Of a stretch of 64,000 nt of DNA, positions 4,965-41,119 are shown piece by piece (position 1 is the first letter of the stretch; every line of letters starts with the position of its first letter). The stretch comes from Escherichia coli (lineage in GTDB: Bacteria > Pseudomonadota > Gammaproteobacteria > Enterobacterales > Enterobacteriaceae). Position numbers and translations under genes: made by a program. Where the stretch lies: the NCBI RefSeq assembly GCF_036507355.1, contig NZ_AP027877.1; one strand, 5' to 3'. The notes below the pieces were generated by a model. That model did not search any database and was not told the DNA's origin. It was given only the letters and a program-made list of their open reading frames with translations.

Positions 4965-4995
4965 TCACCAAAATGGATAGGGGATGATTTAACGA

Positions 4996-8575: not shown

Positions 8576-9646
8576 ATGAAGCTGGTTGAACACTACATCA
8601 TGCGTGGTACGCGCCGTCTGGTGCTGATTATCGTCGGTTTTCTGATCTTTATTTTCGCCAGCTACTCCGCACAGCGTTATCTGACCGAAGCGGCAAATGG
8701 GACATTAGCTCTTGATGTTGTGCTGGATATCGTTTTCTACAAAGTGCTGATTGCACTGGAGATGTTGTTACCTGTTGGTCTGTATGTGTCAGTTGGCGTG
8801 ACGCTAGGGCAGATGTATACCGACTCGGAAATTACCGCTATCTCTGCGGCGGGGGGCAGTCCGGGACGCTTGTACAAAGCCGTTCTTTATCTGGCGATAC
8901 CGCTAAGTATTTTTGTCACCCTTCTGTCGATGTATGGTCGTCCGTGGGCTTATGCGCAGATTTATCAACTGGAGCAGCAGTCGCAGTCGGAGCTGGATGT
9001 TCGCCAGTTGCGGGCAAAGAAATTTAACACTAACGATAACGGACGAATGATCCTTTCGCAGACGGTTGATCAGGATAATAATCGCCTGACTGACGCGCTG
9101 ATTTATACTTCTACTGCCAATCGAACCCGCATTTTCCGCGCCCGTTCGGTTGATGTGGTTGACCCATCACCCGAGAAACCGACCGTTATGTTGCACAACG
9201 GCACTGCCTATCTTCTCGATCATCAGGGGCGTGACGACAACGAACAGATCTACCGTAATCTGCAATTACATCTGAATCCGCTGGATCAAAGCCCTAACGT
9301 CAAACGCAAAGCGAAATCGGTCACGGAGCTGGCGCGCTCCGTCTTTCCAGCCGATCATGCCGAACTGCAATGGCGACAAAGCCGTGGCCTGACCGCATTG
9401 TTGATGGCGCTGCTGGCCATTTCATTAAGTCGGGTAAAACCGCGGCAAGGGCGATTTTCAACATTATTGCCACTGACGTTGCTGTTTATTGCCATTTTTT
9501 ATGGCGGCGACGTCTGCCGTACGCTGGTGGCTAACGGCGCGATTCCCCTCATTCCTGGTTTGTGGTTAGTACCCGGACTCATGCTAATGGGCCTGCTGAT
9601 GCTGGTCGCACGCGACTTCTCTTTGCTGCAGAAATTTTCCCGATGA
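8576..9646 (+). CDS. LptF/LptG-family (YjgP/YjgQ) permease paralog
   Basis: 356-aa membrane protein with the family's N-terminal pattern (HYIMRGTRRLVLIIVGFLIF) and a large periplasmic loop. Confidence 0.65.
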   Translation: MKLVEHYIMRGTRRLVLIIVGFLIFIFASYSAQRYLTEAANGTLALDVVLDIVFYKVLIALEMLLPVGLYVSVGVTLGQMYTDSEITAISAAGGSPGRLYKAVLYLAIPLSIFVTLLSMYGRPWAYAQIYQLEQQSQSELDVRQLRAKKFNTNDNGRMILSQTVDQDNNRLTDALIYTSTANRTRIFRARSVDVVDPSPEKPTVMLHNGTAYLLDHQGRDDNEQIYRNLQLHLNPLDQSPNVKRKAKSVTELARSVFPADHAELQWRQSRGLTALLMALLAISLSRVKPRQGRFSTLLPLTLLFIAIFYGGDVCRTLVANGAIPLIPGLWLVPGLMLMGLLMLVARDFSLLQKFSR

Positions 9647-10722
9647 ATGTTTTCAGTCGCTATTTAATCCGTCATCTCTTTCTCGGTTTTGCCGCCGCCG
9701 CAGGGCTATTGCTGCCGCTTTTTACCACCTTCAACCTGATTAACGAACTGGATGATGTCAGCCCGGGCGGTTATCGCTGGACTCAGGCGGTGCTGGTGGT
9801 GCTAATGACCTTACCGCGCACACTTGTCGAACTTTCGCCATTTATCGCCTTATTGGGAGGGATTGTCGGCCTGGGGCAGCTATCGAAAAACAGTGAGCTT
9901 ACCGCCATTCGCAGCACGGGGTTTTCTATCTTCCGTATTGCACTGGTGGCGCTGGTTGCCGGGATATTGTGGACTGTTTCGTTAGGCGCGATAGATGAGC
10001 GGGTAGCGTCGCCATTGCAGCAACAGGCGCTGCAAATCAAATCGACCGCCACCGCGTTGGGGGAGGACGATGACATTACCGGCAATATGCTGTGGGCCAG
10101 GCGCGGCAATGAATTTGTGACGGTGAAATCGCTGAATGAGCAGGGCCAGCCTGTGGGCGTGGAGATTTTTCATTATCGTGACGATCTCTCGCTCGAATCC
10201 TACATTTATGCACGCAGTGCCACCATTGAAGACGACAAAACGTGGATCCTGCATGGTGTGAATCATAAAAAATGGCTGAATGGCAAAGAAACGCTGGAAA
10301 CATTAGATAATCTTGCCTGGCAATCGGCCTTCACCAGTATGGATCTTGAAGAGCTATCGATGCCGGGGAATACTTTTTCTGTCCGTCAGCTTAATCATTA
10401 CATCCATTATTTGCAGGAAACCGGGCAACCCAGCAGCGAATACCGCCTTGCACTGTGGGAAAAACTGGGGCAACCCATCCTGACCCTGGCGATGATTTTG
10501 CTGGCTGTGCCGTTTACCTTTAGCGCCCCGCGCTCGCCAGGGATGGGTAGCCGTCTCGCTGTAGGCGTCATCGTTGGCTTACTCACCTGGATCAGCTATC
10601 AAATCATGGTCAATTTGGGATTGCTATTTGCGTTAAGCGCACCTGTTACCGCGCTCGGTTTACCGATAGCGTTTGTGCTGGTGGCGTTGAGCCTGGTGTA
10701 TTGGTATGACAGACAACATTAA
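9643..10722 (+). CDS. LptF/LptG-family (YjgP/YjgQ) permease paralog; start taken at MNVFSRYLIRHLF, overlapping the upstream stop by 4 nt
   Basis: N-terminus MNVFSRYLIRHLFLGF is typical of LptG-like proteins; ATGA overlap with the upstream gene. Confidence 0.65.
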   Translation: MNVFSRYLIRHLFLGFAAAAGLLLPLFTTFNLINELDDVSPGGYRWTQAVLVVLMTLPRTLVELSPFIALLGGIVGLGQLSKNSELTAIRSTGFSIFRIALVALVAGILWTVSLGAIDERVASPLQQQALQIKSTATALGEDDDITGNMLWARRGNEFVTVKSLNEQGQPVGVEIFHYRDDLSLESYIYARSATIEDDKTWILHGVNHKKWLNGKETLETLDNLAWQSAFTSMDLEELSMPGNTFSVRQLNHYIHYLQETGQPSSEYRLALWEKLGQPILTLAMILLAVPFTFSAPRSPGMGSRLAVGVIVGLLTWISYQIMVNLGLLFALSAPVTALGLPIAFVLVALSLVYWYDRQH

Positions 10723-25850: not shown

Positions 25851-26176
25851 GTCGTTTATCTCGCCAGGGAACCGTTTTTACGATTGGCTTCTTAATACAT
25901 AGTCTCCGTTTTACAATGCAAATTGTTTAATATTTATACGTCTGAGCTTCTGTGCTGGTTATAAAGCACCCACTTTCATGAGATCAATTTTAGTATGTTA
26001 TTACATTGCTACGTCTGTTCTTTTCATGACGAATGGCGTTTTTTCTCTTGTTTGTATTTTTCACGAGAGCAATGAGCAGATCAAAATTCCCAAAAACATA
26101 AGATTATTCGCAATGAATCGCCACGGGTTTAACAGACACCTCAGAGTCATTTAAGATGGCTTAAAGAGAGGTGCCC

Positions 26177-26455
26177 ATGAGCGGTAAGCGTTATCCCGAA
26201 GAGTTTAAAATTGAAGCAGTCAAACAGGTTGTTGATCGCGGTTATTCTGTTGCCAGCGTTGCAACACGTCTCGATATCACCACCCACAGCCTTTACGCCT
26301 GGATAAAGAAGTACGGTCCGGATTCTTCCGCTAATAAAGAACAGTCAGATGCTCAGGCCGAGATCCGCCGTCTCCAGAAAGAGCTGAAGCGGGTTACCGA
26401 CGAACGGGACATATTAAAAAAAGCCGCGGCGTACTTCGCAAAGCTGTCCGACTGA
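26177..26455 (+). CDS. IS3-family transposase OrfA (HTH)
   Basis: MSGKRYPEEFKIEAVKQV... HTH and leucine-zipper-like region ending ...KKAAAYFAK, typical of IS3 OrfA. Confidence 0.8.
   Translation: MSGKRYPEEFKIEAVKQVVDRGYSVASVATRLDITTHSLYAWIKKYGPDSSANKEQSDAQAEIRRLQKELKRVTDERDILKKAAAYFAKLSD
26413..26421 (+). promoter_or_regulatory. Candidate programmed -1 ribosomal frameshift site (A-run) for an OrfAB fusion
   Basis: ttaaaaaaag near the end of orfA; orfB lies in the -1 frame relative to orfA. Confidence 0.5.
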
Positions 26456-26511
26456 GGTACGCCTTTATCCGTGACAACACCTGTTGCTGGCCTGTTCGCC
26501 TGCTCTGTCGG

Positions 26512-27324
26512 GTGCTGGATGTTCATCCCAGTGGTTTTTACGCCTGGCTTCAGCAGCCGCATTCACAACGCCATCAGGCAGACCTGAGGCTGACAGGGCA
26601 GATTAAACAGTTCTGGCTGGAATCGGGATGCGTCTATGGTTATCGCAAAATCCATCTGGATCTGCGGGACAGCGGGCAACAGTGCGGAGTGAACAGAGTC
26701 TGGCGACTGATGAAACGTGTCGGGATAAAGGCTCAGGTCGGATACCGGAGCCCGCGGGCACGTAAAGGCGAGGCCAGTATCGTGTCGCCCAACAGGCTCC
26801 AGCGACAGTTCAATCCGGATGCTCCGGATAAGCGTTGGGTAACGGACATAACCTACATCAGGACCCACGAAGGCTGGCTGTATCTTGCCGTGGTTGTTGA
26901 TCTGTTCTCACGCAAAATTATCGGCTGGTCCATGCAATCCCGGATGACAAAGGACATTGTCCTGAACGCACTGCTGATGGCTGTATGGCGCCGTAATCCC
27001 CAAAAACAGGTGCTGGTTCATTCGGATCAGGGCAGTCAGTACACAAGCCATGAGTGGCAGTCGTTCCTGAAATCACACGGCCTGGAGGGCAGCATGAGCC
27101 GTCGCGGTAACTGCCATGATAATGCGGTTGCAGAAAGCTTTTTCCAGTTGTTGAAACGCGAACGGATAAAGAAAAAGATCTACGGAACGCGGGAAGAAGC
27201 CCGCAGCGATATTTTTGATTACATCGAAATGTTTTATAACAGTAAGCGTCGGCATGGTTCCAGCGATCAGATGTCACCGACAGAATATGAAAACCAGTAT
27301 TATCAACGGCTCGGAAGTGTCTAG
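26512..27324 (+). CDS. IS3-family transposase OrfB (DDE/RNase-H-fold integrase core); probably made as an OrfAB fusion starting upstream
   Basis: DDE-type motifs (WVTDITYI..., HSDQGSQYTS, NCHDNAVAESFF). Confidence 0.8.
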   Translation: MLDVHPSGFYAWLQQPHSQRHQADLRLTGQIKQFWLESGCVYGYRKIHLDLRDSGQQCGVNRVWRLMKRVGIKAQVGYRSPRARKGEASIVSPNRLQRQFNPDAPDKRWVTDITYIRTHEGWLYLAVVVDLFSRKIIGWSMQSRMTKDIVLNALLMAVWRRNPQKQVLVHSDQGSQYTSHEWQSFLKSHGLEGSMSRRGNCHDNAVAESFFQLLKRERIKKKIYGTREEARSDIFDYIEMFYNSKRRHGSSDQMSPTEYENQYYQRLGSV

Positions 27325-27342
27325 ATTACCCGTGGCGATTCA

Positions 27343-27555
27343 GTCATCAGTAATTACGCTGTCATCCAGTTTCGCATAACAGATACTGTCATCACCGGCT
27401 TCAATATAGCTGGAAAAATTCTCACTGATGAAGCGGTAGAAAAGGGCACCGAGTACATACTGTTTAAAATCCCATCCATCTACGGAGCCTCTGACATCAT
27501 TGGCAATGGCCCAGATTTGGCGGTGTAGCTCTGCACGCTGCTGAAGGCTTGTCAT
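27343..27555 (-). pseudogene. hsdM: Type I restriction-modification methyltransferase HsdM (type IC, EcoR124I-like), N-terminal 71 codons only, truncated by the IS3-family element
   Basis: MTSLQQRAELHRQIWAIANDVRGSVDGWDFKQYVLGALFYRFISENFSSYIEAGDDSICYAKLDDSVITDD is near-identical to the recalled EcoR124I HsdM N-terminus; the ORF's stop is the terminal TGA/TCA of the IS inverted repeat. Confidence 0.75.
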
Positions 27556-27758: not shown

Positions 27759-29636
27759 TCAGTCGGTGAGAATTTCTTCATCCGTATCCATTGTGGATGG
27801 TGATGAATCTATTTTTGTTGTAAGAAATACCCGATTCAGTAGTCTTTGCTTCAGGGCGTTTCTTCGCTCATTGTAGAACTCCGGGAAGCGACTGAACTCA
27901 ATATTTTCATCTGAAACTAACAGCATTGATGGCGAATAGTTGTTTGATGGCTGAGATAGCCATTGTTTCAGGGAAGTATCCTGTTTACTTATATTCTGAG
28001 AGTGATTCAGTAAATGAAGATTAGGTATGGTGTCCCAGTGCTCCGGATTTTCATAAAAGCTGAGGTTCTCTGGTGTATTCGCAACATAATCTAATTTTTC
28101 AAGATATTTCTTTGAAAAATGATTTCTTGGGTGAAGGTGATCAATATGAAACACCTCGGTCGGATTCATTTCAGGGAACAGAAGATGCAATAGTGCGCGG
28201 CAACGACCTTCGCCATATCTGATATTGAGAAGGCTTTCGATGTATTCGTCGTCAAATCTGAGGTCTTTATTCGAGCCTTTATATCTGTCAATAATCTTCT
28301 CAAGAGGAAAGTGAATATCTGAAAGACTATTTTTCATTACATCTCTGATACTCGTGAGTAGCGCATCTGCCTGGCTTCCAAAGATCCCTTTCAGAAGTAC
28401 CATGTAAAACCACTGGCTAATTACTGAGCGTTCATTGTGGTTTTTATTCAGGAGATTAATCGTTGTATATAATGGATGTCCACTGGTTTGCTTTTTGTAA
28501 AGCCAGTAGACCACAGGAATGACTGCATTTTTAGATATCAAAGACTGTGGATTGATGCCGAATCGCCTGATAAGAATAAAGGTCTCCTTGATACAGGATT
28601 TTATTTCAGACCATTGTTGTTGTATCTTACCGACCTCCTCTGAAGTGAAGTTTTTTACTTTGAACCGGACGTCAGAGTCAATAAGCATCAGGCTGGTTTT
28701 TAAGAACCAGTCTCTTTCAATATAAAAACCCATTTCATTATTCTGATAAATGTTTTTTGTCAGTTCATCCAGTTCTTTTCTGAAATCACCCTGCCAGTGC
28801 GCTACCGCTATTGACATCAGTAAGTCTGAAAACTCAAGTTTTGTCCCCCCGCTGTTCGTGCGGATGAAAACATCCAGCACATGATCAATGTCCTGACTGC
28901 TCTCATTGAAGTAGTGGATAAGATTCTCAGTTCTTATCTTGGTATAAAGTTTAAGCAGAGTTTTTCTGGAAAATTCACTGGAAATGAGATCTCTTTTTTC
29001 AAGTTCTGGTACGACAACGTTAAATAAAATATCATCAGGCGAATCATGTTGCTCGTATTTGAATATTTCGTGCAGGCAGAACCAGTGATGTTTGTTATCG
29101 GCAAGTGAATCAGTATATTGCTTCTCGGTCAGGAACCTGAAGTTATACTTCATCATGAGCTCATCGTCTGACTTAAGTGGCGCGGTTAAATCGACGTAAA
29201 GCTTTCTGGGTGGCAGGATGCGATCATCCTGTGCCGAAGGCCACCACATCCGGGGCTGTTTATACGCATACGTTCCACACAATCCAATATATAATGATGT
29301 GAGACGCTGCTGACCATCAATCACGGCCTTGAAATCATGAAACCCAGCATTTGTTGCTACGCAGGGGTTTTCTTCATTAAATCGCTGACAGTATTCTTTC
29401 AGGAACTCATAGAATTTGTAATCATTTTTAATACTGGCACTACGGATATCCCACATCATGAAAGAGTTTATCGGGTAGTCTCGCATGATGGAATCAAACA
29501 GCAAACATATCTGACTGCTGCTCCAGACGAACTTCCTCTGAATTGCAGGCAGAAGATAGTGGCGTAAATTAATTGAATCTATCGCTTGTTTTATCGTTAT
29601 TGCTTTTTCATACTGGCCAGCCATCATAAACCTCAT
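27759..29636 (-). CDS. GmrSD-family DUF262 (ParB-like, DGQQR motif) / DUF1524 (His-Me finger) protein; putative type IV modification-dependent restriction endonuclease
   Basis: N-terminal IKQAIDSI...YLLPAIQRKFVWS and IDGQQRLTSL motifs (DUF262); C-terminal FHIDHLHPRNH (DUF1524-like HNH); 625 aa; AT-rich. Confidence 0.75.
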   Translation of the reverse strand: MRFMMAGQYEKAITIKQAIDSINLRHYLLPAIQRKFVWSSSQICLLFDSIMRDYPINSFMMWDIRSASIKNDYKFYEFLKEYCQRFNEENPCVATNAGFHDFKAVIDGQQRLTSLYIGLCGTYAYKQPRMWWPSAQDDRILPPRKLYVDLTAPLKSDDELMMKYNFRFLTEKQYTDSLADNKHHWFCLHEIFKYEQHDSPDDILFNVVVPELEKRDLISSEFSRKTLLKLYTKIRTENLIHYFNESSQDIDHVLDVFIRTNSGGTKLEFSDLLMSIAVAHWQGDFRKELDELTKNIYQNNEMGFYIERDWFLKTSLMLIDSDVRFKVKNFTSEEVGKIQQQWSEIKSCIKETFILIRRFGINPQSLISKNAVIPVVYWLYKKQTSGHPLYTTINLLNKNHNERSVISQWFYMVLLKGIFGSQADALLTSIRDVMKNSLSDIHFPLEKIIDRYKGSNKDLRFDDEYIESLLNIRYGEGRCRALLHLLFPEMNPTEVFHIDHLHPRNHFSKKYLEKLDYVANTPENLSFYENPEHWDTIPNLHLLNHSQNISKQDTSLKQWLSQPSNNYSPSMLLVSDENIEFSRFPEFYNERRNALKQRLLNRVFLTTKIDSSPSTMDTDEEILTD

Positions 29637-29697
29637 ATGTTATATTAGCTGGCCTATTTTAATTTATTGCGTGTCGGTAGTACAGTCTTTGCACAAA

Positions 29698-30027
29698 CTA
29701 ATTTATGCAATGGAAAAGCTGACGGCTCGGTTTGTGTTTTTCATTCGGGTAGACTCGCATTGCGGATGCACAAAGTGATGAAACCTGTCTTGCTATATTT
29801 TTACCGAAGTTAACAAGTAGGCCGTGCTTTATTTTTTCACCCTCTGCCCTGATGCTGATGACAAAGCTGAACTGATATACGATTACCTCAATGAGGTCAT
29901 TGCCAAATGTTATGATGGCGGCGTTGTTTATTTCATATTCATAATCCCTCAGGTCAGTGTTAAGTCTTGCTGTTGCATTTACAAGTGCGTATTCTTTATC
30001 GATAATCATAACTTTCTCACTTATCAT
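29698..30027 (-). CDS. Hypothetical protein (109 aa) immediately upstream of the GmrSD-like gene
   Basis: ATG-initiated ORF on the same strand, 61 bp upstream of the DUF262 gene; no family recognised. Confidence 0.4.
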   Translation of the reverse strand: MISEKVMIIDKEYALVNATARLNTDLRDYEYEINNAAIITFGNDLIEVIVYQFSFVISIRAEGEKIKHGLLVNFGKNIARQVSSLCASAMRVYPNEKHKPSRQLFHCIN

Positions 30028-30067
30028 GTTAATGTGATTTAATCATCACTAATAATATGTTGTGATT

Positions 30068-30781
30068 TTAATTACGATTATTCGTCTGTTTACTCCCGTA
30101 ATGCATTATCTGATGAATAATGTTCATGTGGGGTAAGGCTTCCATAAAGTCAGACTGTTCAATCAGCGAAATGAGTGTGTTATCGATCTCAAACGTTGTA
30201 TCCGGTAATACCTCAACCAGCCTGATTCGGGACAGGGAAATAACGAACACGCCCGATGACGTACATCCGGCAAGAAACCACTCCGCATGGCTGCAAAGCA
30301 GACGATAGGGATGAACGGTATGGCTGACGTTTTCGTCGGTTCTGATACGCACCTTGGTCTGGTTAAGTATGGCGAGCGTTAGTCTGCTGAAATCACCGAA
30401 CAGCGTGGGTTTCTGGCGCGGCTCCGGGAGCATAATCCGGTAGGGTGAAGGGTGCTCCCCGTCAAGCAGAAGGCTCAGCAGTTTGGCATCCATCGCGGGT
30501 AACAGACGGTCAAGATGCAGCAGTCTCGCCAGTATCTTCATATCTCGTTCCGTGCGGCGACGAAAGTAATGTGAGGCAAGCTGATACACGCCGTTGCTCT
30601 GTTCAATATCAAGGTAGGTCAGACGGACGTTGAAATCCCGCCGCAGCGTTCGCGTTGTCACTCCAAATTCTTCTGCCAGCGTCCCGATATGCAGCTTTTC
30701 ACCCTGAAACAAACGGCTCAGGATGATGGAAAGGCGGGTTGCCAGTCTGTCATGTTCGTTTTCTTGTGTTATCAGCGTCAT
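30068..30781 (-). CDS. HTH plus WYL-like domain transcriptional regulator (BrxR/CapW-like candidate)
   Basis: N-terminal HTH_11-like segment (RLSIILSRLFQGEKLHIGTLAEEFGVTTRTLRRDF) followed by a ligand-binding-like domain; sits upstream of a defence gene. Confidence 0.6.
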   Translation of the reverse strand: MTLITQENEHDRLATRLSIILSRLFQGEKLHIGTLAEEFGVTTRTLRRDFNVRLTYLDIEQSNGVYQLASHYFRRRTERDMKILARLLHLDRLLPAMDAKLLSLLLDGEHPSPYRIMLPEPRQKPTLFGDFSRLTLAILNQTKVRIRTDENVSHTVHPYRLLCSHAEWFLAGCTSSGVFVISLSRIRLVEVLPDTTFEIDNTLISLIEQSDFMEALPHMNIIHQIMHYGSKQTNNRN

Positions 30782-30883
30782 ACATCATTTCCGAATTTAG
30801 CCGGGAAATGATGCCAGCAGTAGCGGACAGGATTTGTCCACCCTCTGAAGTTTTTTAAAGTCTGAATACCTTAAATGTAAGTG

Positions 30884-31633
30884 CTAAACGTCAGTATTCT
30901 CAGGTGAATAAAGATGCTTCTGGCGCATGTAGGCAATAAAAATGCAGGATGGTAGCGTCACCCGGTATGCGGGACCGGCTAAATCAATCAGCAGCCAGAG
31001 AGAACTGAGCACCCAGCCCACAGGACCGGCAAAAGCGCCCATGGTACGCGTCAGCATGGCATTTCCTGCAACGGTCAGCCCTCTGCCTAACAGGGCTTTC
31101 GCCACACCATTTGTGACAACAAGTGCCATCTGATAGGCCGCAAACCCGGATGTTTTTATCCCCGCCTGGATTGCCATGGTCAGCAACTCCGGCGTGGGGT
31201 TGCTGTAGCCTGTCTGCAATTCTTCCGCCACGGTCTTTAACTGATCGGGCGTCATCTTCTCAAGGCTTTTCTCCAGGATCTTCATCAGCAGATTCATTTC
31301 AATGGTTTCAACACTGGATTTGTTGTTGTAGTTCACCTTCATTTTATCGCAGGCATCGGTGAGAATTTCCCGGTACGGCACCCCTTTACCCCAGCGGAGC
31401 AGCGTGGCAAAGCTGTTCGCCCCAAACGTCTGAACCTCGGCGGCAATGGCATCCCAGTAGCGCGGGTGGTTGGGCTTGTGTTTTTTATACTGAGGATCAT
31501 AGGTCAGCGTTTCCGTGATGCGTGCCAGTCCGTCTTTCGGATCGCAGATAAGCACAGAAACCAGTAAATCCAGATCGTCACGATGGCAGTGGCGCAGAAA
31601 CTCAAGGTCGGGGTCGTGTCGGTAGGTAGCCAT
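30884..31633 (-). CDS. YaaW-like (UPF0174/DUF3944) protein
   Basis: Resembles recalled YaaW (LEFLRHC..DLDLLV, GPVGWVLSSLWLLIDLAGPAYRVT); 249 aa. Confidence 0.5.
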   Translation of the reverse strand: MATYRHDPDLEFLRHCHRDDLDLLVSVLICDPKDGLARITETLTYDPQYKKHKPNHPRYWDAIAAEVQTFGANSFATLLRWGKGVPYREILTDACDKMKVNYNNKSSVETIEMNLLMKILEKSLEKMTPDQLKTVAEELQTGYSNPTPELLTMAIQAGIKTSGFAAYQMALVVTNGVAKALLGRGLTVAGNAMLTRTMGAFAGPVGWVLSSLWLLIDLAGPAYRVTLPSCIFIAYMRQKHLYSPENTDV

Positions 31634-31774
31634 ATTTCACCTCATTGCAGATATTGGACCTGACAGTTTAAGGAAGCCACCGGACAGGGCTTGTCCGCCT
31701 GAAAAACAAAAAAGTAAAAAAAACCTGCCGAAAGCAGGTTTCTGTTCACCGGATGGAGGTATAACGCGTCGGGA

Positions 31775-32161
31775 TTACTTTCCGCGCCATTCCTTTTCCA
31801 CTTTATCCGCAAAAGCATCGCACTGCCGGGCATATTCCGGGTTATAGAGCAGCTCCGACTGCGAAAGCTGCATGGCGGTCATGCTGCCGTTACGGGCATT
31901 TGATTCGAGCCAGGTTCTGCCATAGGTTTTGTTCATCACCTGAAGTACCCGGTTGAATACCGGTCCGTTGAAGCGGGCATTGAGATTAACGCCTTTTACC
32001 TGAAGGCCGCTGTCACTGGTCTGGGTCAGGCGGGTGGAGTACATCGCGCAGAAGGTCGAGTTGGTTATCATCTGAGCGTCAGCCTGCTCGTCGGCGAACG
32101 CGCTGTGGCTGAAGGCGGAAAGCAGAATTGTGGCGGTTAACAGTTTTAAAATTTTCATCAT
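31775..32161 (-). CDS. Exported hypothetical protein (signal peptide)
   Basis: N-terminal MMKILKLLTATILLSAFSHSAFA signal peptide; 128 aa. Confidence 0.5.
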   Translation of the reverse strand: MMKILKLLTATILLSAFSHSAFADEQADAQMITNSTFCAMYSTRLTQTSDSGLQVKGVNLNARFNGPVFNRVLQVMNKTYGRTWLESNARNGSMTAMQLSQSELLYNPEYARQCDAFADKVEKEWRGK

Positions 32162-32235
32162 GTTCCCTTATGGATTGAAAAGCGGAGACAGCCTGCCATA
32201 CAGGGTGGTCAGGAGATGTCCGGCAGAGAAAAAAG

Positions 32236-32475
32236 TCAGGGTTTCAGCGAGGGAGCCAGTCGCCAGCGGTGAGGGCCAGCAGATTCGAGCACAAAGGCCA
32301 GTTGAGCGAGGTCCCGTCTTGCGGTCCGGGGAGATACGTCAAACTGCCGGATGATGTAGCGAACAGATATTGTCTGACCGTAAAACAGCACCATGGTCAG
32401 CCGGATGAGCCGTTCTCCCTGTCCGGTAGCGTGTTGCCTGCGACGATTAACGTTCATCGTTGCCATACGCGCCAT
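32236..32475 (-). pseudogene. Short HTH-only ORF resembling the N-terminal domain of a DeoR/WYL-type regulator (possible remnant)
   Basis: GERLIRLTMVLFYGQTISVRYIIRQFDVSPRTARRDLAQL is HTH_11-like; only 79 aa and overlaps the 3' end of the neighbouring gene. Confidence 0.35.
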
Positions 32476-32918
32476 CGGTCCCCTTTCTGAAAAGAATCGA
32501 GGTGTCTGGCAAGCCAGATATCAGGGCATGAATTGCCGGTAACGCAGCGGGCAGTAAACCGGTGGCAGTTAAAGTCGAGCAGGCTGTAGGGATAGCGCTG
32601 ACCCACTGCCGCCTTTGCCCGTTCAGCGGCCTGCGCACAACCCTGAGGCGTCAAATCCATACAATCGGTATACACCGAGATAGCGGAGTTCCAGCCATCG
32701 AGCCGGTCAAGAAACCCTTTAGCCTTACTTTTGATAACGGTTCCATCGCCATCAAGATGAACAATATCGCCGTTACCCACATAGATACCGCTGTGTGCGG
32801 CAAGGCCAAAAAGCAGTTCGCACTGCACGATACCACCGTAAGCCGGTTCATCGACGCAGGAGAGAATGCAGTTATCGATAAATGAATCCACGAAGTTCAG
32901 CAGCAGAAGCCGGTACAT
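32454..32918 (-). CDS. LRAT/NlpC-P60-superfamily protein (start at MYRLLLL)
   Basis: His-containing HSGIYVGNGDIVH followed by a C-terminal NCHRF motif resembling the LRAT catalytic-Cys NCEHF box. Confidence 0.5.
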   Translation of the reverse strand: MYRLLLLNFVDSFIDNCILSCVDEPAYGGIVQCELLFGLAAHSGIYVGNGDIVHLDGDGTVIKSKAKGFLDRLDGWNSAISVYTDCMDLTPQGCAQAAERAKAAVGQRYPYSLLDFNCHRFTARCVTGNSCPDIWLARHLDSFQKGDRWRVWQR

Positions 32919-32976
32919 AACATTCAGTTCCTTACTACGGGGGAGAGGGGGGATGCGGGGGAAACGTAGTGAACAC

Positions 32977-33405
32977 TCAGCTTTCCCACAACGTACGGAC
33001 CGTGAAAACCCCCATATCGTGGTAAGCCATAAAGTTACTTTCCCATAGCGACCAGAACTCACGGGCGTCGACATGAGAGATATCGCCACAACGGGAAAGC
33101 CACGTGTATTGTTGCGTCCAGCTCACATCGACATCTTTTTCAAGCTCAGGCCATGGATGCCCTGCATAATGAAAATCGGTGACGTAATCGAGCTGCCAGT
33201 CTTCTCCGGCAGGGATGAGGCGTATTTCGACCGGATGCCAGCCGCCCTTTTCCGGTGAGTATTCAGGGTCACGGAAGTTAATGGTTAATCCGGTGATGGG
33301 GTGACGATGAGGCGGTTTTTGCGCGAGGATATCCAGAAGCAGTTGGGTGAACGACCGGGAGAGAGGCAGCACATAGCCGCCCTGCAATATTACGGGTGAT
33401 GACAT
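32977..33405 (-). CDS. Hypothetical protein (142 aa)
   Basis: ATG ORF, same strand and closely spaced with neighbours; no family recognised. Confidence 0.45.
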   Translation of the reverse strand: MSSPVILQGGYVLPLSRSFTQLLLDILAQKPPHRHPITGLTINFRDPEYSPEKGGWHPVEIRLIPAGEDWQLDYVTDFHYAGHPWPELEKDVDVSWTQQYTWLSRCGDISHVDAREFWSLWESNFMAYHDMGVFTVRTLWES

Positions 33406-33451
33406 AGTGAATTTCCTGATTTTTGGTTAACAGAACACAGAAAAAGCGGGG

Positions 33452-33883
33452 TTAGTCCTGGCTGAGCGTAGCAAGCTGCGTCATACGATGCTGCCAGTCG
33501 GCATAGCAGCGGTGCATAAAGAGTCTGCTGCTGTCCGCTTCGATAAGGCAGATATCCGGACTTCTGAGTACGGCGGCAAGAAACCCGGCGTTGTTGGTGC
33601 TGCCCTGACCAAATAGTGGTCGAAACACACGCGACGGAAAGCTGTCCTGCTGCTGTTCAAGAATGGCGTGAATCGCATCAAGCGTTATCCATTCACGGGA
33701 GAACAGGCCTCCTTCGCCATTGGCGGTTAAGCGCAGGGCGAGGCTTCCGGTTTCATCCTCCTTACCCAGCTCATACGTCAGCAGTCCCTTACTGTGTGGA
33801 CTGATTTTCTCGGCTTCACCCCTGTAGAACACGGTATAGCTTTCGGTGACGGCGGCTTCGGTAGCGACTTTTTTCTTACTCAT
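33452..33883 (-). CDS. Hypothetical protein (143 aa)
   Basis: ORF whose start overlaps the stop of the upstream gene by 8 nt. Confidence 0.45.
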   Translation of the reverse strand: MSKKKVATEAAVTESYTVFYRGEAEKISPHSKGLLTYELGKEDETGSLALRLTANGEGGLFSREWITLDAIHAILEQQQDSFPSRVFRPLFGQGSTNNAGFLAAVLRSPDICLIEADSSRLFMHRCYADWQHRMTQLATLSQD

Positions 33884-34247
33884 GGTTCAGCGCCTCAATC
33901 AGGTTCTGGAGTTGAGTGATAACGGTCGTGTCCGGGAACACCAGATAGATACCCTGTCCGTTATCGCAGACGATACCGAGCAGGAGATACCAGCCATCAT
34001 CAAGTGCGGTGACGTATTCCGGGTTAGCCAGTGCCACTGCCAGCAGCGGGTCTTCGGGGAGGGTGTCATCGTGGTTGAGATGCCAGAGCAGGGTTCTTGT
34101 TTCTTTCCAGAAAGCAGTAAACAGGTCGATATCATCTACGGGGCCAAGAATTTCATTGCTGAGGGCTTCCAGCGCGGAGGCTGGCAGGTTGAGAAGGGAA
34201 ATACTGGTAGGGGTTGTGAGTTTGTACATAGTTATCTCCATCATCAA
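33876..34247 (-). CDS. Hypothetical protein (123 aa)
   Basis: First gene of a four-gene minus-strand cluster; no family recognised. Confidence 0.4.
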   Translation of the reverse strand: MMMEITMYKLTTPTSISLLNLPASALEALSNEILGPVDDIDLFTAFWKETRTLLWHLNHDDTLPEDPLLAVALANPEYVTALDDGWYLLLGIVCDNGQGIYLVFPDTTVITQLQNLIEALNHE

Positions 34248-34457
34248 TCGAATATCATGGAAATAATATGTGTCCGTTTTAAGGGCTATTACAGGCTTGG
34301 TGTGTTGGATTTGTTTTTCTTATTACGAACAAATAGCGACTGGCTCAGGCCGGGATTGTTTAGAGACAGATTCAGCATAGATTCGTAAAAATAAAAACTA
34401 TTAGCGCGAGATCCTCTGTTTATGCCGTGACAGTTAACTGATAGGAGGCTTGTTGGT

Positions 34458-35163
34458 TGGATTTGCCCCTATATTTCCAGACACCTGTTATCACTTAACC
34501 CATTACTGGCCCGCTGCCGCAGATATTCCCGTGGCGAGCGATAACCCAGCGCACTATGCGGATGCCATTCGTTATAATGCTCGAACGCCTCTGCAAGGTT
34601 CTTTGCTGCCGTTAACCCGTCTGGTTTGGGCATGATACTTATGTAGTCACGCTTTATCGTTTTCACGAAGCTCTCTGCTATTCCGTTACTCTCCGGACTC
34701 CGCACTGCCGTGTTCTTCGGTTCAAGTCCCAACATCCTGGCGAACTGACGTGTTTCATTCGCCCGGTAGCATGAACCATTATCCGTCAGCCACTCCACTG
34801 GAGACGCCGGAAGCTCGCTGCCAAAGCGGCGTTCCACTGCTCCCAGCATGACGTCCTGTACTGTTTCACTGTCGAAGCCACCCGTTGTGACCCCCCAGTG
34901 CAGTGCCTCACGGTCACAGCAGTCCAACGCGAACGTGACCCGCAGTTTTTCTCCGTTATCACAGCGGAACTCAAACCCGTCAGAGCACCATCGCTGATTA
35001 CTTTCTTTCACAGCCACTCTGCCGGTATGTGCCCGTTTCGATGGCGGTACAGCGGGTTTTCGCTCAAGCAACAGCGCATTCTGGCGCATGATCCGGTAAA
35101 CACGTTTGGCATTGATCGCAGGCATACCATCAAGTTCTGTTTGTCTGCGAAGCAGCGCCCATA
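34458..35163 (-). mobile_element. IS2 fragment (right-hand about 0.7 kb: 3' part of insD plus the right inverted repeat); the left half is missing
   Basis: tggatttgcccctatatttccagacacctgttatcacttaa at 34458-34498 matches the recalled IS2 right IR; the adjacent ORF matches InsD from [10 protein letters not shown] to ...NRCLEI. Confidence 0.85.
34469..35125 (-). pseudogene. insD: IS2 transposase InsD, C-terminal about 218 codons only
   Basis: Translation matches the recalled InsD C-terminal two-thirds; homology extends upstream to about 35163 ([12 protein letters not shown]) and then stops. Confidence 0.85.
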
Positions 35164-35636
35164 ACGCAGCCCTTGCCTTACTGGTGTTTCTGGCCCTGAC
35201 CGGATTACGCCTTGGTGAAACCCGTTATCTTCTGCTTGAGGATATCGACTGGTCCCGTCAGACCATCACTTTGCGAGAAACTAAAAACGGTAAGCTTCGC
35301 TGTGTGCCAGTGGGTGATAAGGCCTTTGTTCTTCTGACTGAGCAGCGCCAGCACTTGGGCGATAAAGGCTGGGTTTTCCCCGGCTATAACACAACTAATC
35401 CGGTTGCAGAACCACGCCGTCTGCAAAAGCGTATATGTGAGAAAGCCGGTATTTCACCATTCACTATTCATGAGATGCGACACACTTTCGCCACGAAACT
35501 TATCGAGAGTGGGGCTGACATCCATACCATCAAAGATTTACTGGGCCACAGCACCATAAAGGTTACCGAGAGGTACCTACATGGCAGCCCGGTGCGCTAC
35601 CACGAGGCCATTAACAAGGCGATGGATACGTTCTAG
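35160..35636 (+). pseudogene. Tyrosine recombinase (phage-type integrase), C-terminal catalytic domain only, N-terminus replaced by the IS2 fragment
   Basis: [17 protein letters not shown] (box I), HEMRHTFAT and LLGHSTIKVTERYLH (box II with catalytic Tyr) motifs; abuts the IS2 fragment. Confidence 0.7.
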
Positions 35637-35717
35637 GTATAAGCATAACTATCCACAGGCAGGTTAGTTCCTTTTTCCCTGCACGCGATTTATCTGTTTT
35701 TAATTGAGGATTAGATA

Positions 35718-37643
35718 ATGAATAACATAGTGACACCCGCCCCCTTAACGACAATGGCGCGTTTTGCCTGTTCGAAACTGAATGGATTTCTGGCTCGTCG
35801 GGCTTTGCATCAGGCAAATGCGAAGAAAATCCTTAAAAAGGCAATTGCAATCAGCATTGCGGTCGATGAGATTTCGGCAAAAGGGGGGCGTGATGGTCTG
35901 CCTGATGGGTTTGTTAACTCACCGCATGGGCTTTTTTATGATGATGGCAAAAAAGTGTTTCAGCTCAGTTCTACTGCTATTGTTCCCGTCAGCAGGCATT
36001 ATTCAGCGTGTAAGAAGCGCAATATGGGTGTCGAACTCATGACCATTAATCATGCGGGTCAGTATGTCTGCGCTGAAATTTCACTGAGCAACGTTACGCT
36101 AAACCCCGATAGTGTGATTGGCTCCCTGACAGCGCAAGGTTTCGGTATCCCTATGACGGTAAAGACGAAAGAGCTGTTGGCGCAGTTCTTACAGACATGT
36201 ATGAAGCAAGCGCTGGCTCTCCCTACCTACCTTGTCGCTGATTCAATGGGATTTGTACCCGGCAAGAAAGCGTTCTTACATGGCAATATGCCTTTAGCAC
36301 AGAACATCCCTGGGTTTGATTACCTTATTTCCGTTCAGCGTACACCCGCAGGGATCGTTGAGTCCGGCACGCTGGATGCGTGGAAGGCTCTGGTGAAAAA
36401 GAATGTCCATGGATGGCCACAGATTTTTGCATTGTGTTCTGCCTTTGCGTCCATGCTGGTTGCATTGTGTAAAATGGATGTGGCGATGTTTCACTTCTAT
36501 GGTGGGTCAACGACTGGAAAAACGATCCTTCTCCAGCTTGCGATGTCAGTTCATGGTCATGGCGGGGAGCCGGGAAGTGGAAAGCTTGTCAATGTTCTTC
36601 GCTGGAATACCACGGTGAATGCGCTAGAGAAGCGACTGAGTCAGTTCTCAGGCCTGCTGGCATGTGTGGATGAGTTGGGGGCTTATAAACAAAAGGACTT
36701 CGCTTCGCTCCTGTACAACATTACCGCCGGTCAGGGTAAAAGCAGAATGGACAAGAATCTGGATATACGTGAGCTTTATACATGGGAAATGTTAATTCTC
36801 TCCGCAGGTGAAATGTCCATTTCTGAGAAGCTAGCGACGGAAAAAGAACATCTTCAGGGTGGACAGGAACATCGCGCCATTAGCCTCAATGTTTTGCCTG
36901 AAGATGCCCGTAAAGACGGCGAATCATCAGAAAGGGTACGCTGCCGCGCTGATAGTCTGAAAAATGGCCTGAGTGAAGTTTATGGTACGGCGGGTAAGGA
37001 ATTTATTGCTAATTTGCTGGCACTGGATAATGACGATGATGAACCGCAGTCCTGGGATGAAATGTGCCTGTCTATTCAGGGGGCAGTAGAAGAACAACGT
37101 GACAGTCTTGTCGGTGAGCTGCAGGAAGAAGGTTATGCACTTAGTGACATTCAGCTGCGTGCATTAAAACGATTTTCCCTATGTTTGTGTGCCGGAATCC
37201 TGGCAGCATCATGGAATATCCTTCCGTTCAGTGAAGATATTATTAAGGGTGCGGTAATGAGCGCGGCTCGTCGCTGGCTGGATGATAAACCAAACCAGTA
37301 TAGCCCACTAAAGCAGGTGCTTACGGCTATCCAGCACGATCTTCTCACAACCAGAGCGTCCCATTTAATGCCGTTGCTTGATGAGGATGCGCATACCCCA
37401 TACAACCACTGGGGGTACACGGATAAGAACGATAACATGATGATTTTCGCTCCTGTTTTTGAAGGCTGGTGTGCCAAAAAAGGCATTAAACCTGCTGATG
37501 TGGCGAAAGCATTGGCAAAAAAAAATCACCTCAAACCAGAAAGTCAGGGCCACTACAAAAAACGTCCTCAGAAGGGAGTTCAGCAACCTTTTTATCTGGT
37601 TATGAATACATTTCTTGGCTGTAACATTGGCGCTGACTTTTAA
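35718..37643 (+). CDS. DUF927-like P-loop protein (putative primase/helicase-associated replication protein of an integrative element)
   Basis: Central P-loop FYGGSTTGKTILLQ and Walker-B-like LLACVDELG; 641 aa; sits next to integrase genes. Confidence 0.6.
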   Translation: MNNIVTPAPLTTMARFACSKLNGFLARRALHQANAKKILKKAIAISIAVDEISAKGGRDGLPDGFVNSPHGLFYDDGKKVFQLSSTAIVPVSRHYSACKKRNMGVELMTINHAGQYVCAEISLSNVTLNPDSVIGSLTAQGFGIPMTVKTKELLAQFLQTCMKQALALPTYLVADSMGFVPGKKAFLHGNMPLAQNIPGFDYLISVQRTPAGIVESGTLDAWKALVKKNVHGWPQIFALCSAFASMLVALCKMDVAMFHFYGGSTTGKTILLQLAMSVHGHGGEPGSGKLVNVLRWNTTVNALEKRLSQFSGLLACVDELGAYKQKDFASLLYNITAGQGKSRMDKNLDIRELYTWEMLILSAGEMSISEKLATEKEHLQGGQEHRAISLNVLPEDARKDGESSERVRCRADSLKNGLSEVYGTAGKEFIANLLALDNDDDEPQSWDEMCLSIQGAVEEQRDSLVGELQEEGYALSDIQLRALKRFSLCLCAGILAASWNILPFSEDIIKGAVMSAARRWLDDKPNQYSPLKQVLTAIQHDLLTTRASHLMPLLDEDAHTPYNHWGYTDKNDNMMIFAPVFEGWCAKKGIKPADVAKALAKKNHLKPESQGHYKKRPQKGVQQPFYLVMNTFLGCNIGADF

Positions 37644-37818: not shown

Positions 37819-38238
37819 ATGTATCATACAACTCCTGATGAATGTCCTGAGTTTCCACAGGCGATTAGTTCCGAAAATGTGGGGAAAGTAAAATTTACAC
37901 GTTACAGGCTCTTAATGACACAGGCTCAATGCAATTTTTATGGTATTCAACGAGAGATTTTTGATGGCGAATTTCCTGCTCTTAGAGCAATTGTTAAAGG
38001 TGATTTTCAAATCGAATTTTTTGTGAAATATAAGTGTAGAGGGCTGGATTACTATGGTTCTCTTGGTGATTGGCCTCATATGACAATTAGTGATGCAAAA
38101 GAAATCGCAGAGGGAGTTTTCAATAACTGCGATGACTCCCACCGTAATAACTGGGAGGGTGAAAATGATAGCGATAGTATCGAAGAAGACATGATGAGCT
38201 ATTTTGAAAATGGTATTCCATTCGGCAATAATTCATAG
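37819..38238 (+). CDS. Hypothetical protein (139 aa)
   Basis: AT-rich ATG ORF followed by a strong terminator hairpin. Confidence 0.4.
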   Translation: MYHTTPDECPEFPQAISSENVGKVKFTRYRLLMTQAQCNFYGIQREIFDGEFPALRAIVKGDFQIEFFVKYKCRGLDYYGSLGDWPHMTISDAKEIAEGVFNNCDDSHRNNWEGENDSDSIEEDMMSYFENGIPFGNNS

Positions 38239-38365: not shown

Positions 38366-39553
38366 CTACAACGTATCGGGTAACTGAGCGCGGATACGTT
38401 CCGCCAGTAACTGACTGGTGTTCTGTAAGCGCTGAGGATGAAGATGTGCATAACGCTGTGAAGACTGACTGCTACGGTGCCCCAGTTGAGCCTGAACGTC
38501 ATATAGCGTACCGCCGTAGGACACGATGAGGGCGGCAACCGAATGGCGGCAGGTATGGATACACACTTCCTTGTCGAAAATTCCCGCCCGACGCACGATA
38601 CGCTGAAAGGCTTTAACCGGGTTACTCAGCGGCATTCCCTGTTTTTTACCAATAAACAACCACGGATTTCCCCGCTGCGTTGGCAGCGTTCTGATTACGT
38701 CCATCGCCAGTGAGTTAAGGTGAACAATCCGTCCATAGCCATTCTTGGTTTCAGGGAGCCACAGGGTGCGTTTAACCGGGTCAACATGCTCCCACTTTGC
38801 CAGACGCAGCTCATCGCGGCGAAGGCCGGTCAATAACAGCAGTTTGACATAGCGGGCAGCTACAGGGCTGGTATCGTTATCGGCGGAGAGAAAAATACGA
38901 CGAATTTCGTCCTCGGTAAAATAACGCTGTCGGGCGTTGTTCTCCCTGAGTAGCTGTACCACCCTTGCCGGATGAACAGAGGTCATGCTTTGCCTTCCGG
39001 CCCATGTAAAGACGGCTTTAATGAGTACGATGACACGGTTACAGGTAGCCGCTGACAGGGAAGTACTTAACGTCTGCTGAAGGCGCAGAATGCTCGCTGG
39101 TGTGATATCGCTCAGCAGCCTCTGACCAATGGCGGGACGGATATGATCGCGGTAGCGCTGAACATCCTTTCCCCAACTGCGTTTAGCGGATTTTGCCCAT
39201 GGCAGATAATGCTGATTAAAGAGTTCATCGAACGTCAGCTCCATTCTCTTGTTTTCACGCTCCTGCTTAGGGTCAGTGCCGGTGGCAAGGGAACGTTTGT
39301 GTTCTATGGCAATCTGACGGGCAAGATTGACGTCCACTTCAGGCCAGTGACCAATGGCGATGGCGCGTTTTCGTCCATGATAGAGGTAGCGGAGCAAAAA
39401 CTTTTTACGACCTTCTTTTCTGCTGACCAGACACTTGAGGCCGGAAATCTCGGTGTCGCTGTATTCGGCATCGGTGCTGCGTGCATCTGATGTGTTAGGG
39501 GGCAGTGATTTAATGAGCTGATTAGTAAAACGGAAGCGTTTGGGAGTGGACAT
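38366..39553 (-). CDS. int: P4-type tyrosine integrase (DUF4102 arm-binding N-domain plus catalytic domain), apparently intact
   Basis: N-terminal ...LKCLVSRKEGRKKFLLRYLYHGRKRAIAIGHWPEVDVNLARQ (DUF4102-like); C-terminal HTCRHSVA...LGHRSSQSSQRYAH catalytic motifs; strong SD (aggagg) before the ATG. Confidence 0.85.
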   Translation of the reverse strand: MSTPKRFRFTNQLIKSLPPNTSDARSTDAEYSDTEISGLKCLVSRKEGRKKFLLRYLYHGRKRAIAIGHWPEVDVNLARQIAIEHKRSLATGTDPKQERENKRMELTFDELFNQHYLPWAKSAKRSWGKDVQRYRDHIRPAIGQRLLSDITPASILRLQQTLSTSLSAATCNRVIVLIKAVFTWAGRQSMTSVHPARVVQLLRENNARQRYFTEDEIRRIFLSADNDTSPVAARYVKLLLLTGLRRDELRLAKWEHVDPVKRTLWLPETKNGYGRIVHLNSLAMDVIRTLPTQRGNPWLFIGKKQGMPLSNPVKAFQRIVRRAGIFDKEVCIHTCRHSVAALIVSYGGTLYDVQAQLGHRSSQSSQRYAHLHPQRLQNTSQLLAERIRAQLPDTL

Positions 39554-40066
39554 ATAACCTCCTGTGACTGGTGTAAAGAACGTCAGGGTTGACCCATCCC
39601 CGGCACGGCGTTGTTAATGGCTAAGTTGATTTTCTGGCATGGCGAAGGGAATGCTGGTGCCACATGGTATGAATTAAGACGGGAAATGCAGAAAGAGCAG
39701 GCTTTACGGTCTGATTCTGGTCTTAAGGGAAAAGATTGCCGTTGGGGAAGAGTTCACAGAAATAATATGTGTTTCAGTCTAGAACAATTACATGCCATGA
39801 GGATCAAGAGAGTTGCCCGTATATGGCAGGTATCAAAGTTGGTTATGGATGTTGCCAAAACATAGTGGGGATGGATGTTGAAGTGCTAACTTGATGTTTT
39901 TAATGGGAAAGTGTAAATTGCGTGATGCGTTGCACTCATGTAGATAACACCATTGAAAGTATCAAATTGTTTGAAAAAAAATCATCTTTGATCAACCTTA
40001 AGATTGTTTCTAGATGGTAAAATCTTCATATGGGAAAGAGCTCACTGGTAAGGAAGACAAATCCTG

Positions 40067-41119
40067 ATGGGGATCATCGTACGAATTCTTAAAGCTAACC
40101 ATGGCGATTGCATTTTGGTGAGCCATGAAAGCGGTTCAGGCACTCTCAACTTGCTCATTGATGGGGGACCTGCGACGACATTCAGGTATGGCATTAGGCA
40201 GCGCTATTCTGGAGCATTGAGTAACGCTCTCGATGATCTGAAAGGAAAGGGGCAAAACATTGATCTGGCTATCCTGACCCACATTGATGATGATCACATA
40301 AATGGTTTTATCAAGGCATTCGAAAGTCCAAACTATCTGCGTCAGCTGGTTAAATCGATCTGGTTCAATTCTTCGAGGTTAATCACACATCATTTTAATG
40401 TGCCTGAAATTTGTGAAAATAATATTTTCTTGCAGGAAGTTTCCCCTGAAACTAGCGTTAAACAGGGGCAAGAACTTGAGGCATTACTTGATGAAATCGG
40501 ATGTGTGCGAGCACCGCTCATTATGGCAGGGCAAATCTACAAAGTAGGCCCGATTACTTTAACAGCACTTTCACCTGAACGAAGACAACTCGAACAGCTT
40601 TTGCATAAGTGGCCAACGGAAGTAAGTTCAGCTGACACTTCTTCATATGAGAATGATTATCACCGTTCATTGGACGAAATTTGGGCAGATGATAGATTTG
40701 AATCTGACTCATCTATTTATAATGGAAGCTCAATTGCATTTTTACTGGAAACAGATGACAAAAAAATGCTTTTTTTAGGAGACGCCAATGACCAAGTTGT
40801 TACAAAAAATTTAAGAGCATTGGGCTATAGCGAAACAAACAAGTTGAAGCTGGATCTGGTTAAAGTTTCGCATCATGGTAGTCAATACAACACAAGCAAC
40901 GAATTTCTTTCAATACTAGATTCTCCATGCTTTGTTATTTCAACCAATGGTTCGAAGCATGGTCTTCCTAATAAAAGGACTATTGCAAGGATCTTAAAGG
41001 AAACAGATGGTGATATTTATTTTAATTACAGCAATGTAATTACTCCGCTGCTTTTAGCGCATGAAGCTGAGAGCTATTCTTCTCGTCTAAAAGTGCTAGG
41101 TGATGAGATTAAATTCTAA
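40067..41119 (+). CDS. Metallo-beta-lactamase-fold hydrolase (candidate nuclease/effector); gene 1 of the candidate defence operon
   Basis: MBL motifs HGDC, THIDDDH, SHHGS; 350 aa; AT-rich. Confidence 0.7.
   Translation: MGIIVRILKANHGDCILVSHESGSGTLNLLIDGGPATTFRYGIRQRYSGALSNALDDLKGKGQNIDLAILTHIDDDHINGFIKAFESPNYLRQLVKSIWFNSSRLITHHFNVPEICENNIFLQEVSPETSVKQGQELEALLDEIGCVRAPLIMAGQIYKVGPITLTALSPERRQLEQLLHKWPTEVSSADTSSYENDYHRSLDEIWADDRFESDSSIYNGSSIAFLLETDDKKMLFLGDANDQVVTKNLRALGYSETNKLKLDLVKVSHHGSQYNTSNEFLSILDSPCFVISTNGSKHGLPNKRTIARILKETDGDIYFNYSNVITPLLLAHEAESYSSRLKVLGDEIKF

Follow-up and report, generated by a model that had tools for sequence, protein, structure and literature searches.

An IS2 remnant abutting a 5'-truncated integrase gene is very probably a two-step mutational scar within one pheV-borne genomic island of Escherichia coli

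The junction of a partial IS2 with a partial tyrosine recombinase gene (int2) at positions 34458-35636 of the 64-kb stretch of E. coli DNA analyzed here (the window) is very probably a two-step mutational scar within one pheV-borne genomic island, and neither a working feature nor the edge of an element. It is an ordinary IS-associated decay scar in a decaying defence island. Comparison with undamaged versions of the same locus and with a complete IS2 places the break to within 3 bp and accounts for the DNA that is missing on both sides.

The junction and its two truncated partners

Five features describe the scar and its immediate surroundings.

34453-34457, no strand: TTGGT, the presumed 5-bp target site of IS2 in its one remaining copy (5403-5407 in progenitor L001)
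34458-35163, minus strand: IS2 remnant, nt 626-1331 of 1331 (blastn against full IS2, Pfam rve/rve_3)
35106-35636, plus strand: chimeric 176-codon ORF, 19 codons of antisense IS2 from a TTG start followed by the int2 fragment (ORF list)
35161-35163, no strand: deletion junction with the 3-bp microhomology ATA (three-way alignment of window, progenitor and IS2)
35164-35636, plus strand: 3' fragment of the int2 tyrosine recombinase, codons 236-392 plus stop (Pfam Phage_integrase, progenitor alignment)

Using as reference a complete 1331-bp IS2 with its 5-bp target duplication from E. coli FDAARGOS_1299, blastn aligned 706/706 bp with 4 mismatches and no gaps (99.4% identity). The match is the right-hand 706 bp of the element and carries the terminal inverted repeat at the transposase-stop end, with its outer tip at 34458 (TGGATTTGCCCC...). 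The 3' 695 nt of the insD transposase gene are kept on the minus strand down to the stop codon at 34469-34471, and the 218-codon minus-strand ORF matches the Pfam rve (E=1.5e-19) and rve_3 integrase-core domains. Identity over 706 bp, terminal repeat and DDE (rve) region are shared with IS2 (IS3 family), and the closest known parallels to the junction are IS-adjacent deletion scars in Escherichia and Shigella genomes. The transposase is nevertheless incomplete, as orfA and the first part of orfB are gone, the rve region is kept and there is no native start. The 64-kb window has no further piece of IS2, and nt 1-625 are missing together with the other end of the element; in place of two terminal repeats and a flanking 5-bp duplication there is a single end, at 34458. 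The IS2 sequence at 34458-35163 is a remnant rather than an element, and it is unable to move because it has one end only and no complete transposase. IS2 is multicopy in E. coli. The 34458-35163 stretch is matched in 4,451 of 5,426 complete E. coli genomes, with a median of 3 matching places per genome that has any match, and in the copies examined the match ends at 35163.

On the other side of the junction, the fragment of int2 matches Pfam Phage_integrase (PF00589, E=1.6e-29) over profile positions 24-168 of 172 and shows zero mismatches to the progenitor gene across 35161-35999. The signature residues R251, K279, H338, R341, H364 and Y373 (full int2 numbering), placed by alignment to the XerC-like structure 4a8e and by motif positions, all lie downstream of the break and are kept. 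Full-length int2 has 392 codons with weak arm-binding, central and catalytic domains, the N-terminal ones at residues 22-198. This is the three-domain layout of P4-type tyrosine integrases of tRNA-associated islands, and int2 is 29% identical to the P4-type integrase that neighbours it. With residues 1-235 deleted, both the arm-binding and the core-binding domains are gone.

The break leaves an open frame that runs from antisense IS2 into int2, and this chimeric ORF is probably not expressed as a working enzyme. A scan of 34150-35800 for sigma-70-like promoters found 0 sites against 1.5 expected. Public E. coli records (BED20969.1, WP_338388377.1) annotate a shorter protein of 150 aa, beginning at a GTG codon at 35184. 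In an exact-protein look-up this was the only product found; the 176-aa chimera and four of five other alternative starts are not on record. Having lost its DNA-binding domains and its promoter region, the truncated int2 would almost certainly be dead and is best regarded as a pseudogene.

These alignments bear out most of what a sequence-only reading had proposed for the junction. It had placed the end of IS2 homology (the 3' part of insD and the right inverted repeat) near 35163, which is exact, as are the start at 34458 and the end at 35636, the integrase stop. It had also held that both elements were truncated at one point by a deletion that took the left half of IS2 and the N-terminal half of the integrase, and the junction alignment and the intact progenitor agree. 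Its claim would have failed on a full-length IS2 or a complete integrase ORF; the first 625 nt of IS2 are nowhere in the window and the integrase fragment falls short of the intact 392 codons. The description of the junction as head-on has to be corrected, as the two genes point away from the junction, the transposase gene to the left and the integrase gene to the right, so that their 5'-truncated ends abut and the arrangement is divergent.

Intact progenitors and the order of events

The same reading had called for a search for an intact progenitor, and the undamaged locus is present in four complete E. coli genomes, GPEC1189, YZ22MPE54, BKQWHE and AREA_C483. To the right of the junction these four are 98.8-99.9% identical to the window, and the DNA to the left of it is also present in all of them. 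Between the two flanks each carries 2,590 bp that the window lacks, made up of the first 234 codons of int2, spacer DNA and a 398-codon gene. None of this DNA was found elsewhere in the 64-kb window. The 398-codon gene, of which a reading of the window sequence could give no hint, has no Pfam or NCBIfam match. GPEC1189 is the closest progenitor, with 0 mismatches over 33000-34457. From 35161 on the window is 99.95% identical to the int2 region of both GPEC1189 and YZ22MPE54. Farther to the left, the window differs from GPEC1189 (L004) by 33 mismatches in the single kilobase 32000-33000, around the LRAT-like and DeoR genes. Adjacent kilobases show 0-1, and the cluster looks like a small recombination patch.

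Both edges of the IS2 remnant are sharply defined by this comparison. Progenitor homology in the left flank stops exactly at 34457, after TTGGT, and IS2 starts at 34458. On the right, IS2 homology extends to 35163 and progenitor homology begins at 35161, the overlapping ATA being common to the interior of IS2 and to int2 codons 235/236. Compared with a progenitor carrying a complete IS2, the total loss is about 3,220 bp (~3.2 kb). From the insertion it takes IS2 nt 1-625 together with the second target copy, and from the island the 398-codon gene, 551 bp of spacer and the first 234 codons of int2.

We propose that two events would produce this arrangement. In the first, a complete IS2 would have landed at TTGGT, with its transposase-stop end to the left, in the spacer that separates a leftward gene block from a rightward operon of the 398-codon gene, int2, the DUF927 helicase gene and a small ORF. 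TTGGT would have been duplicated on insertion and its second copy later deleted. In the second, one illegitimate deletion of ~3,220 bp would have joined IS2 nt 626 to int2 codon 235/236 over ATA. A complete IS2 must have come first because a one-ended partial IS2 cannot transpose. We infer the order of events because no intermediate was found, a complete IS2 at TTGGT being present in none of 5,426 complete E. coli genomes and in neither GTDB representative genomes nor JGI metagenomes.

The position of the second breakpoint bears on how the deletion arose. It lies inside IS2 and not at its tip, therefore the deletion was not made by the transposase. Like many IS-rich enterobacterial islands, the window has its IS2 remnant next to a deleted stretch. 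Unlike in a transposase-made adjacent deletion, however, the endpoint falls within the element (nt 625/626) and the IS itself is damaged. A transposase-mediated adjacent deletion was thus ruled out, as was direct insertion of IS2 into int2, since no IS terminus adjoins int2. Judging from the sequence of the join, the deletion probably arose by replication slippage or end joining; the 3-bp microhomology is short and could be chance.

The left junction of the scar is spanned by 0 of 5,426 complete E. coli genomes, and a search with its 24-mer found no match in GTDB representative genomes or in JGI metagenomes; the right-junction 24-mer likewise has no match among GTDB representatives. None of the 5,426 complete genomes carries the scar, and the core flanks of the window are at most 99.0% identical to any of them.

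One island with two integrases

The scar lies within an island whose main features in the window are as follows.

26114-46899, no strand: genomic island of ~20.8 kb, from the glcA side of the core genome to pheV, containing the scar (core homology and tRNA)
26114-27342, plus strand: complete IS3-family IS (1,229 bp), at the island's far end (matching terminal repeats TGAATCGCCACGGG, Pfam rve and HTH_21)
27343-27555, minus strand: hsdM remnant (type I restriction-modification), first 71 codons (homology to GPEC1189)
35718-37643, plus strand: intact DUF927 gene, Cch/SaPI-Rep-like P-loop putative replicative helicase (Pfam DUF927, PDB matches)
37819-38238, plus strand: intact small ORF of 139 codons, ortholog of an 'Arm DNA-binding domain' protein in another island subtype
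38366-39553, minus strand: intact P4-type integrase, 395 codons, convergent with the int2-DUF927 operon (Pfam)
46900-46975, minus strand: tRNA-Phe (pheV), probable attachment site of the island, beside yqgA-speC (ARAGORN)

Core homology to ~3,900 E. coli genomes stops at 26113, and the island is collinear with those of YZ22MPE54, BKQWHE and GPEC1189. Its leftward block contains genes for DUF262, a WYL/HTH regulator, DUF3944, DeoR, LRAT-like and DUF2787 proteins and two hypotheticals, the latter with no Pfam or NCBIfam match, and occurs in 114 complete E. coli genomes. In every relative inspected the block is followed by int2, the DUF927 gene, the small ORF and the convergent P4-type integrase, in this order, and beyond the P4-type integrase by variable cargo and then tRNA-Phe (pheU or pheV).

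The DUF927 protein matches Pfam PF06048 (E=4.5e-34) and has the same length as the product of the progenitor gene. Searches against the PDB returned 5dgk (SCCmec Cch, E=1e-12), aligned across the Walker A motif GGSTTGKT, and 8tch (a staphylococcal pathogenicity-island protein, E=1.2e-10). Against the NCBIfam model Cch1 it scored 74.6 bits where the cut-off is 700, and the protein appears to be only a distant relative of SCCmec Cch1. DUF927 proteins have been grouped with Cch and the SaPIbov1 Rep helicase (PMC7581432). As in the elements carrying those two proteins, the window has a DUF927 P-loop gene by recombination genes in an island with restriction/defence cargo (PMC7581432), but the similarity of its protein to Cch and SaPI Rep is limited to the ATPase core. 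The small ORF itself has no Pfam or NCBIfam match. It is 48% identical (E=1e-30) to L006 19910-20266, which shows a weak Arm-DNA-bind_3 match, and by its position it could encode a directionality factor. The P4-type integrase matches Arm-DNA-bind_3, Phage_int_M and Phage_integrase in Pfam and is identical in length to that of the progenitor.

Islands that IncC plasmids and SXT/R391 elements mobilise have a conserved DUF927-xis operon (PMC7449626, PMC4588540). The arrangement of a DUF927 gene and a small ORF that the window shares with MGIVchHai6, MGIVmi1 and MGIVflInd1 is a resemblance and not membership (PMC7449626, PMC4588540), and the gene upstream of DUF927 is a tyrosine recombinase in the window, not the HTH regulator of those islands. 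The window also departs from the classical GI-pheV, in which intP4 is reported to lie directly beside pheV (PMC11537424). In the window 7.3 kb that include a defence system separate the intact integrase from the tRNA, and a second integrase, int2, heads the helicase operon.

The cargo slot between the P4-type integrase and the tRNA spans 39554-46899 in the window, 21521-26901 in L003, 20321-25127 in L006 and 20318-23149 in L007. In the window it holds a Lamassu-like system and a gene of the metallo-beta-lactamase fold; in G3/10 a restriction endonuclease, an alcohol dehydrogenase and a LysR regulator; and in ET151 a hypothetical gene and IS903. PADLOC matches on the tRNA side of the window are LmuA, LmuC and LmuB (40067-46063), and those on the 27759-33405 side are HEC-05 (DUF262/GmrSD-like, 27759-29636), JukA (30884-31633) and a WYL regulator (30068-30781).

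The limits of the island are best seen in relatives that retain both attachment sites. G3/10, ET151 and MRY15-117 each have a perfect 25-bp copy of the tRNA-Phe 3' end at a distance of ~23 kb from the proximal attachment site. In G3/10 and ET151 the proximal site is the tRNA gene, and in MRY15-117 it is a further repeat (23/25 nt). In all three intact relatives the repeats enclose a single unit with the two integrases, the DUF927 gene and the small ORF, and no such repeat separates these genes from one another. The pheV-proximal end is present in the window, but the distal repeat seen in the relatives L003, L006 and L007 is missing; pattern searches found no second copy of the tRNA-Phe 3' end in the window at up to 5 mismatches in 25 nt.

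The distal repeat was evidently lost together with the hsd region at the IS3-family element, as its surroundings suggest. This 1,229-bp element, full-length copies of which occur in 179 genomes, adjoins the core at 26113 on one side and hsdM codon 71 on the other and has no target duplication. Homology to GPEC1189 at the hsdM remnant begins at L004 10345, inside the hsdM CDS (9001-10557). Most of hsdM, together with hsdS, hsdR, the genes beyond and the distal tRNA-Phe repeat, are gone in comparison with GPEC1189 and G3/10. The element marks a second IS-linked deletion in the island. Because one integrase is almost certainly dead and one attachment site is gone, this copy of the island is probably immobile and fixed in the chromosome.

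We take int2, the DUF927 gene and the small ORF to be the conserved backbone of one element, and not a relic beside the integrase of another, because the attachment repeats enclose them all, the triad is orthologous and its order is kept, and it is widespread. Between island subtypes amino acid identity is 63% for int2, 45% for the DUF927 protein and 48% for the small ORF. The segment of int2, DUF927 gene and small ORF is found in its ET151-type version in at least 133 E. coli genomes. Intact int2 of the window type occurs in Escherichia, Enterobacter and Citrobacter, its commonest sequence alone on at least 178 contigs. A blastn search of plasmids in distant mode with the int2-DUF927 segment gave no match. 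The RefSeq int2 of G3/10 (L003 17751-19061) is annotated with 282 aa, yet its open frame extends up to 436 codons; the short annotation reflects a start-codon call, not a truncation, and the likely start gives ~390.

This arrangement runs counter to the second part of the sequence-only reading, in which the truncated integrase, the DUF927 gene and the small ORF were the remains of an older, separate element next to the P4-type integrase and the IS2 junction was its decayed boundary. Some observations would suit such a cassette. The segment carries its own recombinase, and from the spacer to the small ORF it is the most divergent part between subtypes, with no megablast match between the GPEC1189 and ET151 types, while the flanks of the divergent segment are 96-97% identical; a mosaic of this kind would fit a swappable unit. 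We nevertheless consider a separate older element very unlikely. No attachment repeat lies between int2 and the P4-type integrase in intact relatives, where a single pair encloses everything, and progenitors are collinear with the window as one island on both sides of the deleted stretch. The triad keeps its orthologous content and order in both subtypes, and the abundance of intact int2 across several genera fits a relic poorly. A nested element would be expected to show its own attachment repeats or presence and absence independent of its surroundings; the triad has the same flanks in every case, and an 'empty site', with the left block fused straight to the P4 integrase, occurs in no examined genome.

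Less likely still is that the junction marks one end of an inverted or translocated segment, or a misjoin of the assembly at a repeated IS, instead of a deletion. IS copies do drive inversions and misassemblies, IS2 is among the multicopy ones, and the 64 kb in view are one part of a genome in which the missing pieces could lie elsewhere. Against this, the break is inside IS2 and joins it to unique sequence over 3 bp; it is neither at an IS end nor between two IS copies, the places where inversions and misassemblies originate. Neither missing piece is in the window, and synteny of the flanks is otherwise intact. Insertion of IS2 followed by one deletion within a single island therefore stays the preferred reading.

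Recurrent truncation of int2 and its meaning

The window is not the only place where int2 has lost its 5' part. An exact-protein look-up found 14 distinct C-terminal int2 fragments in public data, although several 'partial' entries are merely cut by contig ends. The 150-aa record was considered as the same scar elsewhere, and this was ruled out; it led instead to an event in the draft genome GCA_958302845.1 (L008 1-92), where an IS1203 end adjoins int2 8 bp downstream of the position of the window junction. In GCA_027279245.1 and relatives (L009-L011, ~4917-5001) the leftward block has been fused to int2 near codon 198 by a deletion that involves no IS, with a microhomology of 8/9 bp (GCTGTyCGC). 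There are thus at least three independent 5' truncations of int2, by IS2 and deletion (residue 236), by IS1203 (~238) and by an IS-free deletion (~198).

Such recurrence raises the question of whether truncation of int2 is selected, either locking a useful defence island in place or removing a harmful activity. The independent truncations, the number of distinct fragments and the Lamassu-like, HEC-05 and JukA defence genes held by the island would all be compatible with selection. We regard it as unlikely, since the truncated forms are few, 14 sequences against an intact cluster of 49 in addition to the contig count of its commonest member, and contig-end cuts account for several of them. Genes of mobile elements are, moreover, commonly pseudogenised. 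Neutral decay is the default because intact int2 copies far outnumber truncated ones.

Annotation should treat the locus as an IS2 remnant and a 5'-truncated integrase pseudogene, and neither as a functional 150-aa 'recombinase', the label in a public record of this sequence, nor as the boundary of an element. Beyond this the junction is of little import. The island itself, with two integrases, a Cch-like helicase and defence genes on both sides of the recombination module, may merit a look of its own that is independent of the junction. Taken together, the scar, the truncation at the second IS and the loss of the distal attachment repeat point to a copy of the island that is probably immobile. 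There is a slim chance that the int2 of a widespread and apparently undescribed family of two-integrase tRNA-Phe defence islands is repeatedly knocked out, its loss fixing the island in the host; if so, the junction would be a snapshot of a mobile defence island under domestication.
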